Source: a virus (lineage: Duplodnaviria > Heunggongvirae > Uroviricota > Caudoviricetes). Taken from it: 4,285 nt of DNA. The notes beneath the pieces are model-generated. The model was given only the letters and a program-made list of their open reading frames with translations. It made no database searches and was not told the DNA's origin. The position numbers and the translations under genes are program-made. Where the stretch lies: the IMG/VR virus record IMGVR_UViG_3300018471_000107, positions 1 through 4,285 of that record; one strand, given 5' to 3'. Of this stretch, positions 1 to 3,612 are shown in pieces (position 1 is the first letter of the stretch; each line of letters opens with the position of its first letter).

Positions 1-209
1 CCCGTAAAATGACAGGAATTGTCAAAACCTTTGACGGCAAAAGCGGCAAGGGTCTTATCACCCCATCCGATGGTCGTATCGATGTCCAGCTTCATGTTTC
101 AGCGCTCAATCTCCGCGATGCAGAAGAAATTACCACCGGATTACGCGTGGAATTTTGCCGGATAAATGGTCTGCGTGGCCCTTCAGCTGCCAATGTTTAC
201 CTTTCATGA
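1..209 (+). CDS. cspF: Cold-shock-like protein, CspF/CspH family; 5' end probably just outside the window
   Basis: ORF 9..209 translates to [23 protein letters not shown]...[20 protein letters not shown], which matches the divergent CspF/CspH cold-shock paralogs as I recall them (degenerate RNP motifs, C-terminal GLRGP.AANVYLS). Bases 3-8 are in frame and read R-K before the ATG, consistent with the MSRKMTG N-terminus of CspF/CspH, so the true start is probably 3 nt before position 1. Stop TGA at 207-209. Symbol given by synteny with Q and ydfU as in Qin; it could equally be called cspH-like. Confidence 0.85.
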
Positions 210-263
210 GCTATATTAAAGCTTTAATTTCAGGCCCCATCGGATCACACATGGAGAGTTTTT

Positions 264-353
264 ATGAATAACCCCGTCTGTCTTGATGACTGGTTGATTG
301 GCTTTAAAAGCTTATGCTGTACTTTGGCCGTAATAGCTCTGCTAATAATATAA
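264..353 (+). CDS. Hypothetical small hydrophobic peptide (29 aa), candidate small membrane protein
   Basis: ATG at 264 is preceded by GGAGAG at 253-258 with 5 nt between the motif and the ATG (7 nt from the GGAG core). Translation is [29 protein letters not shown], stop TAA 351-353, with a hydrophobic C-terminal stretch. Not on the supplied ORF track because it is short. No homology is claimed; an AT-rich spacer can produce such ORFs by chance. Confidence 0.25.
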
Positions 354-501
354 TAAGCAGACTCATTGTGTTTAGGGACATTGTACTGGAAGAAAACATT
401 TTAAACATCAGGCAAATAACCAAGTCACCAGCTAAATAATAAGTTAACAGACATGAGTCCCGGGATGAGATTCAACATTACCATTGCCCCATTTAAAGCA
501 C

Positions 502-537
502 AAAACCCGCTCATCAGCGGGTTTTCTACTTTTTCTT
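502..537. terminator. Bidirectional intrinsic terminator; candidate tR' for the late transcript and terminator for cspF
   Basis: Stem 502-510 AAAACCCGC pairs with 517-525 GCGGGTTTT (9 bp, 5 GC pairs) around a 6-nt loop TCATCA. On the plus strand it is followed by TTTTCTACTTTTTCTT; on the minus strand by TTTT GTGCTTT. It sits between the convergent cspF and Q genes. Confidence 0.6.
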
Positions 538-558
538 AACGTCGGGTATACAAAGCCC

Positions 559-599
559 ATCGTTGAAAAAATTTTATCCATATTTTTTGAAAAATGCAA
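559..599 (-). promoter_or_regulatory. Candidate late promoter pR' with an AACGAT pause-like element in the initial transcribed region
   Basis: On the minus strand just after the Q stop: -35 TTGCAT (599..594), 17-bp spacer, -10 TAAAAT (576..571), then TTTTTC and AACGATGGG (564..556). From memory, AACGAT is the sigma70-dependent pause element of lambda pR'. The terminator at 502-525 lies about 40-60 nt further downstream. Q-binding element is not identified. Confidence 0.45.
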
Positions 600-630
600 A
601 CATCATGTCGCCATCTTCAGCAAAAATCAT

Positions 631-1383
631 TTATCTCGTCACCTTCCTCAATTGCGCTTCCGCGTATGCTTCTTCCTGCCAGCACTTTGTTACCAGTTTA
701 CCAATGACGTCCGCATACCCCTTATACCACTGATAATCGGTCAGGTCTGGTACCAGCTTCTGGACATGACGTCGTGCCAGCGTGGTCGGTAAACGACTAA
801 ATCGGTTTCCATTACAACGCCCACAAATCTTATATACCGGTACGCCATGAAACCGGGTTCTTTTTTCATCCAGAACAATCCCTTTACCCTTACACCCTCT
901 GCACGCTGTGCTGGCTTCGCCCTTACCATGGCAATGCTGACATAGTTCCTTCACCCATTCTTCCTTGATTACAGATTCCCCGCGTCTGTAGTGTTTCACC
1001 ACTTCGCGCAATACATTATAAAATCCCGTACCTGAACAATGCTCACAGCGAGCCTTACTTGCCGCAGACCTGGAGTAATCAGCAAAGGCAAAACTCACGA
1101 GGTAAGGAATAATCTGTAACCGGATTTCTTCACTCAATTTGTTCAATGTCGGGTTATCCAGTGCCATCGCGTAATTTAGCAGGCCTTCAATCGCAAACTG
1201 AGGGTCCTGAACACCAACTTTTGCCAGAAATAAGGCCAACCCAAGTGGTGCTTTCGACTGCACCATCCCCTGCGCTGCCATTACATCCGTAATTGTTAAA
1301 CAACCGGTGCCTGTCGCTGGAGCGTCATCGCTCAATTTTGGAGATTTTGGGGAGTAATATTTTGGTAAGGCTTCAAGGTTCAT
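631..1383 (-). CDS. quuQ: Antitermination protein Q, QuuQ/Phage_antitermQ type, 250 aa
   Basis: ORF 631..1413 translation matches the Q antiterminator family as I recall it. I place the start at the internal ATG 1383 (MNLEALPKYY...) because GGAGAA lies 5 nt upstream of it, whereas the track start at 1413 would overlap the upstream gene by 17 nt. This gives 250 aa and a 13-bp gap to the upstream gene, the same length and spacing I recall for quuQ and ydfU in E. coli K-12 Qin. Four CxxCxG motifs are present. Stop TAA 631-633. Confidence 0.85.
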   Translation of the reverse strand: MNLEALPKYYSPKSPKLSDDAPATGTGCLTITDVMAAQGMVQSKAPLGLALFLAKVGVQDPQFAIEGLLNYAMALDNPTLNKLSEEIRLQIIPYLVSFAFADYSRSAASKARCEHCSGTGFYNVLREVVKHYRRGESVIKEEWVKELCQHCHGKGEASTACRGCKGKGIVLDEKRTRFHGVPVYKICGRCNGNRFSRLPTTLARRHVQKLVPDLTDYQWYKGYADVIGKLVTKCWQEEAYAEAQLRKVTR

Positions 1384-3222: not shown

Positions 3223-3321
3223 TCAGGCAGCTGCACCCGCCGTTTTCTCGTACTTACTGATAGTGATCTCGACCTTCCCTTCCGGGATAACCGGTCCCCA
3301 CTCCACCAGCATTCTTTTCAC
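3223..3321 (-). pseudogene. rusA: rusA 3' remnant: 32 in-frame codons after the internal amber codon, encoding the RusA C-terminus
   Basis: Reading through TAG at 3322-3324 in the same frame gives VKRMLVEWGPVIPEGKVEITISKYEKTAGAAA, then TGA at 3223-3225. This aligns with the RusA C-terminus as I recall it ([28 protein letters not shown]). The TGA lies 19 nt upstream of the KilA-N start and its RBS, the normal operon spacing. Confidence 0.6.
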
Positions 3322-3612
3322 CTAGCTGTCGTCTTCCCACACACCCGCGTGGGTCAGGGCGTCAAACAGCGCCTTGTTATAGTTGTCCAGATCGCGGATC
3401 CTGTTATCCGGAGGAAACAACACGATCTCCACTGAAGCAGGTGCCGACGTTGGTTTCGGCAGACGACGTAACTGCTCAACTATTGCTGCGCACGCCGCGC
3501 TCTGGAATTTTCGCCCCGCCGCGCTTATCAGGCTCTTACCAGCAAACGCCCCTTTGTTGGGGTGTCGCCAGTACGTGTTCACGCTGGGCGGAAAAGGCAG
3601 GATCAGCTTCAT
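3322..3612 (-). CDS. rusA: Crossover junction endodeoxyribonuclease RusA, truncated by a premature in-frame amber codon (96-aa product)
   Basis: Translation MKLILPFPPSVNTYWRH...DNRIRDLDNYNKALFDALTHAGVWEDDS matches RusA, including the catalytic acidic motifs RDLDN and WxDD. The ORF ends at TAG 3322-3324, at a position where E. coli RusA has Gln. Start ATG 3610-3612 overlaps the upstream stop in an ATGA arrangement. Confidence 0.8.
   Translation of the reverse strand: MKLILPFPPSVNTYWRHPNKGAFAGKSLISAAGRKFQSAACAAIVEQLRRLPKPTSAPASVEIVLFPPDNRIRDLDNYNKALFDALTHAGVWEDDS

Follow-up and report, generated by a model that had tools for sequence, protein, structure and literature searches.

The 29-codon open reading frame between cspF and the antiterminator gene Q of a Qin-type prophage is ynfS, a translated gene for a predicted single-helix membrane peptide

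Organisation of the cspF-ynfS locus

The window, meaning the whole 4,285-nucleotide stretch of viral DNA that was analysed, is the late-regulatory region of a Qin-type lambdoid prophage. The features surrounding the small open reading frame (ORF) are listed in Table 1. Two plus-strand genes, cspF and ynfS, are followed by the minus-strand Q gene and then by a DUF968/HNH homologue of YdfU, a KilA-N gene and rusA, with a LexA-type DNA-binding-domain protein and a PerC-like protein encoded beyond rusA.

Table 1. Features of the cspF-Q region, with positions in the window and nucleotide diversity (pi) among the loci collected from IMG/VR.
Feature	Position	Strand	Basis	Segregating sites	pi
cspF, cold-shock-like protein gene (first 4 nt outside the window; ORF at 9..209)	1..209	plus	Translation match, annotation in K-12 and other genomes	9 synonymous, 6 non-synonymous (pN/pS 0.23)	0.007
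cspF-ynfS gap				6/54, all outside the Shine-Dalgarno	0.034
ynfS Shine-Dalgarno GGAGAG	253-258	plus	Read in the sequence; 5-nt spacer TTTTT to the ATG		
ynfS coding sequence	264..353	plus	29 codons + TAA; identical to K-12 ynfS; Pfam PF23697	0 synonymous, 8 non-synonymous or disruptive	0.017
3' spacer from ynfS to the terminator, untranslated	354..501	plus		29/148, and a 7-nt indel	0.058
G+C-rich hairpin AAAACCCGCTCATCAGCGGGTTTT	502..525	probably both directions	Terminator scan (plus strand); homologues in SfV and Ayreon		0.003
Candidate pR'-type late promoter TTTGCA-18 nt-TAAAAT	571..600	minus	9/12 consensus match; between the Q stop codon and the hairpin		
quuQ/ydfT, late antiterminator Q	631..1383	minus	Pfam Antiterm PF03589, E = 3.6e-54; K-12 annotation		

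The cspF stop codon (207-209) is separated by a gap of 54 nt from the ATG of ynfS (264-266), which is preceded by its Shine-Dalgarno sequence within the stretch CACATGGAGAGTTTTTATGAATAAC, and the ORF closes with tandem in-frame TAA codons (351-353 and 354-356; together 351-356). An earlier reading of this DNA, made from the letters alone (the sequence-only reading), had reported GGAGAG, the ATG at 264, the 29-codon ORF and its peptide, and all of these coordinates proved exact when the window was read again.

A terminator scan found no terminator-like site between cspF and ynfS, and downstream on the plus strand it returned only the hairpin at 502-525. No sigma-70 consensus belonging to cspF itself was found in a promoter scan. 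The consensus scan that returned the candidate promoter at 571-600 did not recover it in haplotype SCU-101. Phages SfV and Ayreon have a homologue of the hairpin some 100 nt past Q, annotated there as a Q-strand rho-independent terminator. Since that homologue sits at the tR' position, we read the hairpin as tR'; it probably ends the cspF-ynfS transcript on the plus strand and acts as a tR'-type terminator after Q on the minus strand. Because the sequence from 502 rightwards is common to many phages that have this Q type but lack cspF, positions 1-501 are read as a probable convergent insert lying just beyond tR' and sharing its hairpin.

The layout suggests that ynfS would be the second cistron of the insert, carried on an mRNA shared with cspF that continues to the hairpin, and that the cassette, convergent to Q and immediately beyond tR', would be antisense to late transcripts over both of its genes. 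Further along the Q strand, in K-12 and in phages, lie cspB and then the lysis genes, so that late transcripts modified by Q have to cross both ynfS and cspF in the antisense direction. Without induction, the hairpin should already end the pR' transcript of a lysogen short of ynfS. The geometry of the antisense arrangement that the sequence-only reading described as built in is therefore real by gene layout, but the arrangement is not dedicated to ynfS, covering cspF as well. It is a by-product of a convergent insert in the late-operon leader.

Lambdoid phages carry morons, such as the accessory gene stx of Stx phages, downstream of pR'/tR', and the cassette occupies the position typical of these genes, with Q/tR' on one side and the lysis genes on the other. 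Unlike these, cspF-ynfS faces the late operon convergently and has the tR' hairpin in common with it, and it should therefore have its own promoter, with late transcription opposing rather than driving it.

Several minor features were observed around the hairpin. The minus-strand interval 500-600, from the Q stop codon to the hairpin, resembles a short transcript unit, about 60-70 nt long, that runs from pR' to tR'; Rfam matched it weakly to isrK, below threshold (16.6 bits; gathering score 50). isrK is a prophage-encoded Hfq-binding RNA, and small terminated RNAs have been reported for other lambdoid late promoters; by analogy, this unit might yield a small terminated RNA too. A second terminator-like hairpin, TGAATCTCATTCCGGGATTCA with a T-rich tail, corresponds to about 455-475 on the minus strand and occurs in two divergent haplotypes (L002, 1768-1748; L003, 1775-1755), on the Q strand and some 30 nt past the main hairpin; the corresponding sequence of the window fails the terminator scan. 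A 51-residue ORF with a TTG start (444..599, minus strand), which the records of phages PhiR42_1 and PhiR63_1 list as a hypothetical protein, spans both the late-promoter candidate and the terminator hairpin and is probably an annotation artefact.

Identity and distribution of ynfS

By sequence identity the 29-codon ORF is ynfS, a known gene of Qin-type lambdoid prophages and phages of Escherichia. A megablast search with positions 150-650 found this region in 1629 of 5426 complete E. coli genomes, with K-12 MG1655 being 100% identical. The MG1655 record has a coding sequence consisting of exactly this 90-nt ORF (protein WP_120795389.1), and PGAP has placed a 'hypothetical protein' coding sequence between cspF and ydfT in all of the RefSeq matches listed. 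The small-protein table of VanOrsdel et al. (2018; PMC6001520) gives the same peptide as ynfS (cspF/ydfT, 1642122-1642211, 29 aa). Residues 1-29 align with positions 1-29 of the Pfam profile PF23697, 'YnfS', at 80.9 bits (cut-off 27), and UniRef names the exact sequence 'Protein YnfS' (UniProt YNFS_ECOLI).

The K-12 Qin prophage and the window agree in all 29 residues of the peptide, in the DNA of 150-650, in the Shine-Dalgarno and terminator sequences, and in the neighbouring genes, cspF upstream and convergent ydfT/quuQ downstream. The gene itself shows no difference between the two; the prophage mosaic differs to the right of ydfU. The ORF had been put forward as unannotated, which does not hold for a gene that is named in K-12, has a UniProt entry and its own Pfam family, and is called by PGAP. 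The sighting was correct but not new, ynfS having been named in 2018. That a real small protein gene was picked up from the letters alone validates the combined cue of a Shine-Dalgarno sequence, an ATG and a hydrophobic tail.

Names in this group of genes are not always consistent. RefSeq uses ynfQ for a 62-codon 'cold-shock protein' coding sequence beside cspI (L001, 181-437, K-12 Qin), and in the table of the 2018 paper ynfQ is a 37-residue peptide encoded between ydfJ and ydfK and identical to YnaM (PMC6001520).

The ynfS region (245-360) was found in 1412 of the 5426 complete E. coli genomes, in 1290 records at an identity of at least 99%. A tblastn search of YnfS against 50,697 phage records returned six matches. 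Five are true and represent four distinct phages, PhiR42_1, HannyBb, PhiR63_1 and 2H10, the last deposited twice; the sixth, in a Pectobacterium phage, has E = 8 and is a chance match. The presence of ynfS in deposited phage genomes means that it is not confined to the defective Qin element.

The degenerate pattern CLDDWLxGFK (residues 6-15), searched over the GTDB species representatives, was found only in E. coli and Shigella, apart from two chance matches in Akkermansia and Kordia whose surrounding translations are unrelated. Outside Escherichia/Shigella, an allele of YnfS was found only in a few records labelled Salmonella enterica, and no ORF resembling YnfS follows the nearest Salmonella csp homologue, a cspF/cspH-like gene on a Salmonella phage contig. 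Relatives of YnfS below about 90% identity were found in none of the searches made.

Translation of ynfS

Published work by others shows that ribosomes initiate strongly at the ATG at 264 and that the peptide is made from its chromosomal site and accumulates during ordinary growth in LB. Chromosomally SPA-tagged YnfS was detected by immunoblot in LB cultures, as one of the 36 positives among 80 small ORFs, at a detectable level in exponential or stationary phase, and ynfS was also positive in tetracycline ribosome profiling (PMC6001520). Weaver et al. describe 'strong start peaks' at ynfS with both retapamulin and Onc112, and a level of the tagged protein similar to that of most newly identified small proteins (bioRxiv 10.1101/511675). 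The ribosome-profiling check that the sequence-only reading had proposed was thus already published with a positive outcome, and the Shine-Dalgarno sequence that it had singled out belongs to a functional ribosome binding site in front of a translated small ORF (PMC6001520; bioRxiv 10.1101/511675). A 2024 survey still counted ynfS among the uncharacterised Qin prophage genes, and we found no report of YnfS localisation, toxicity or phenotype in the literature.

The possibility had been raised that the ORF arose by chance in AT-rich spacer DNA and is not expressed. The 421-nt cspF-Q spacer was therefore compared, on both strands, with 5000 first-order Markov simulations, using criteria picked post hoc, once the ynfS ORF had been seen. 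An ATG-initiated ORF that had 29 codons or more and was preceded at 5-14 nt by a Shine-Dalgarno core occurred in 10% of the simulated spacers, which by itself would leave room for coincidence, but the frequency fell to 0.8% when a 19-residue stretch with a Kyte-Doolittle mean of at least 1.6 was also demanded. Taken alone, the sequence gives only moderate support for an ORF that is more than chance. It is the published chromosomal SPA-tag immunoblot and initiation-site ribosome profiling that place ynfS above a chance ORF; with three independent lines of translation evidence, the proposal of an unexpressed ORF is already refuted and retains a negligible probability.

A predicted membrane helix in YnfS

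Residues 10/11-29 of YnfS have a Kyte-Doolittle mean of 2.3-2.5 (2.46 over residues 11-29), and the mean is at least 2.0 in all common alleles. On the summed Hessa scale the same segment scores -0.7 to -1.0 kcal/mol (-1.0 over residues 11-29), a marginal value that is due to K15 and S16. By composition, then, the last 19-20 residues have the hydrophobicity needed for a single membrane helix, in agreement with the sequence-only reading, and YnfS has the hydrophobic stretch of about 19-20 residues expected of a single-pass small membrane protein. Residues from about 10/11 to 29 would form a single inner-membrane helix, and the short acidic N-terminus (DD) is predicted to stay outside the bilayer.

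YnfS resembles the small inner-membrane proteins YnaM/YnfT, YldA and YmiC of E. coli, which came from the same discovery screens, have a single predicted transmembrane segment and are often encoded in prophages or intergenic regions. It differs from them in having no charged C-terminal tail and in carrying a lysine within the hydrophobic stretch.

Polymorphism of the locus

Loci were collected with a 20-mer in the 3' end of cspF in order to avoid selecting for intact ynfS ORFs, which gave 129 loci with the full span (IMG/VR) in 49 haplotypes. As haplotype pairs differ by only 2-3 substitutions, segregating sites were counted in place of a formal dN/dS estimate. Twenty of the 129 loci belong to one lineage, also seen in phage Tritos (L006), in which cspF has a 1-nt frameshift and a 258-bp deletion (window about 200-457) has taken out the 3' end of cspF, the whole of ynfS and most of the spacer. 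The lineage retains cspB, the hairpin and Q. The loss of cspF and ynfS together fits a single expression unit.

The other 109 loci comprise 107 with the 29-codon ORF intact, one with ATA in place of ATG and one with a stop codon at K15. Because a stop codon would arise from only about 4% of substitutions, retention of the ORF at this divergence is uninformative. The Shine-Dalgarno sequence is unchanged in all 37 non-deleted haplotypes, which is not significant on its own. The check on conservation that had been proposed for the ORF, run here as counts of segregating sites, did not show purifying selection acting on the amino-acid sequence of YnfS.

The pattern of substitution in cspF shows purifying selection (Table 1), and the site classes of ynfS differ from those of cspF (Fisher P = 0.007). 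The lack of synonymous changes among the eight ynfS sites is compatible with neutrality (P = 0.14). The 3' spacer at 354-501 is the most variable segment upstream of the terminator, and the only hint of constraint on ynfS is a diversity below that of both flanking non-coding segments (0.017 vs 0.034 and 0.058), which could also be explained by linkage to cspF.

Twelve missense alleles fall in residues 10-29 (L11M/V, I12T, S16I, C18Y, C19S, A22T/G/V/S, V23L and I29M). None brings in a charged or strongly polar residue or a proline, although each random change would have a 28% chance of being radical in this way (P = 0.02, rising to about 0.085 with the single K15stop included among the radical changes). 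Selection on YnfS, if there is any, would fit one acting on hydrophobic character and not on the exact sequence. Codon 22 (327-329) is unusually variable, encoding Ala, Thr, Gly, Val or Ser in public sequences, and its neighbours are almost fixed.

Given no measurable purifying selection and a narrow lineage, ynfS is probably a young or weakly constrained gene. With no synonymous and many non-synonymous changes, hydrophobicity retained and a range limited to Escherichia prophages, it has the look of a newborn gene, and could be an example of a recently born, translated membrane peptide in the 3' region of a prophage csp gene.

Interpretation

The explanation that best accounts for these observations, and in which we have high confidence, is that the ORF is the known gene ynfS, translated, probably as the second cistron of cspF-ynfS, into a probably young accessory peptide with a single predicted helix. 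Judged from the population data, YnfS is most likely an accessory membrane peptide of recent evolutionary origin whose function is weak or conditional, and would not be a toxin.

The shape of the peptide had been compared with that of type I toxins, and a YnfS that damages membranes and is curbed by a dedicated sRNA or by the Q-dependent late transcript was considered. Type I toxins are hydrophobic peptides of fewer than 60 residues, as the 29-residue YnfS is, and ShoB/OhsC, IbsC/SibC and TisB/IstR-1 are systems of this type in which the toxins have hydrophobic C-termini. YnfS recalls ShoB and the Ibs-type peptides in its size and hydrophobic C-terminus, and shares with all three systems a length of less than 30 residues, one predicted hydrophobic helix and a lack of similarity to larger proteins. 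Its gene is antisense to the path of late transcription, and a weak promoter-like match lies on the minus strand at 374-345, just past the stop codon. Unlike for the three systems, no cognate sRNA gene with a conserved promoter and terminator and no family match were found for ynfS. Pfam returned YnfS alone at E values up to 10, with no similarity to Hok, Ldr, Ibs, ShoB, TisB, DinQ, ZorO, Fst or other toxin families; NCBIfam and PADLOC gave no match, and PHROGs only a non-significant one (E = 0.12). Minus-strand promoter-like matches are at chance level (3 found vs 1.8 +/- 1.6 expected), and the one at 374-345 was rejected as a dedicated antisense promoter, being absent in the SCU-101 haplotype and altered in 2013C-4974. 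The window has no minus-strand terminator inside the cassette, Rfam searched over 1-700 at E up to 1 gave only sub-threshold matches and no significant sRNA, and pR' transcripts in a lysogen would end at tR' (502-525) and so provide no antisense RNA on ynfS. The mRNAs of classic type I toxins are usually not translated until released from repression, but the stability of the predicted RNA fold of 205-360 is not out of the ordinary (z = -1.26) and gives no sign of a structured, translationally locked mRNA, and YnfS is detectable in ordinary growth, being made in LB cultures from strong initiation peaks without killing the cell (bioRxiv 10.1101/511675; PMC6001520). The likeness to a type I toxin thus does not extend beyond size and hydrophobicity, and we regard such a role as very unlikely. 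A related scheme, which we rate as lower still, would make YnfS a phage-encoded membrane-active peptide (toxin-like, or serving lysis timing or exclusion) that is switched off at induction, with the late transcript as its antitoxin RNA. If it were true, the lysogen would make the peptide, and Q-antiterminated readthrough of 502-525 would collide or pair with the cspF-ynfS mRNA.

A more serious competitor, possible though on balance unlikely, is that ynfS is translated from a fortuitous Shine-Dalgarno sequence and ATG in the long 3' region of cspF and that the peptide has no selected function; either translation itself would matter, for instance to the stability of the cspF mRNA, or nothing would. 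The excess of non-synonymous polymorphism fits such a peptide equally well: all eight ynfS sites are non-synonymous or disruptive, significantly unlike those of cspF, codon 22 tolerates five residues (A, T, G, V, S), and one start-loss and one nonsense allele occur among 109 otherwise intact loci. The narrow distribution, with no deeper homologues found, points in the same direction. Against it stand the lower diversity of ynfS relative to its flanks, the 107 of 109 loci that keep the ORF and the changes in the hydrophobic segment that stay hydrophobic, none of them strong at this low divergence, together with the detectable accumulation of tagged YnfS, which is likewise not strong and indicates that the peptide is not degraded at once. 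We continue to favour a young accessory membrane peptide.

Other features of the window

The window is itself a mosaic: K-12 Qin matches it at 100% identity over the first 640 nt, but for the full length the best of the 5426 complete E. coli genomes reaches only 96.3%. On the right-hand side of ydfU it has the KilA-N gene, rusA and the genes for the LexA-DNA-binding-domain and PerC-like proteins, where K-12 has rem-hokD-relBE.

The rusA gene (3223-3612, minus strand) is apparently interrupted by an in-frame TAG stop codon at 3319-3321. The ORF at 3322..3612 encodes 96 residues that align with positions 1-102 of the 124 in the RusA profile, and the next in-frame ORF, 3223..3321 (VKRMLVEWGPVIPEGKVEITISKYE...), has no Pfam match of its own and resembles the missing C-terminus of RusA. 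The rusA of the window is probably a nonsense pseudogene. Besides its Antiterm domain, Q (631-1383, minus strand) also matches the DnaJ CXXCXGXG zinc-finger domain over residues 148-193, at 35.4 bits, which exceeds the Pfam cut-off of 32.7.
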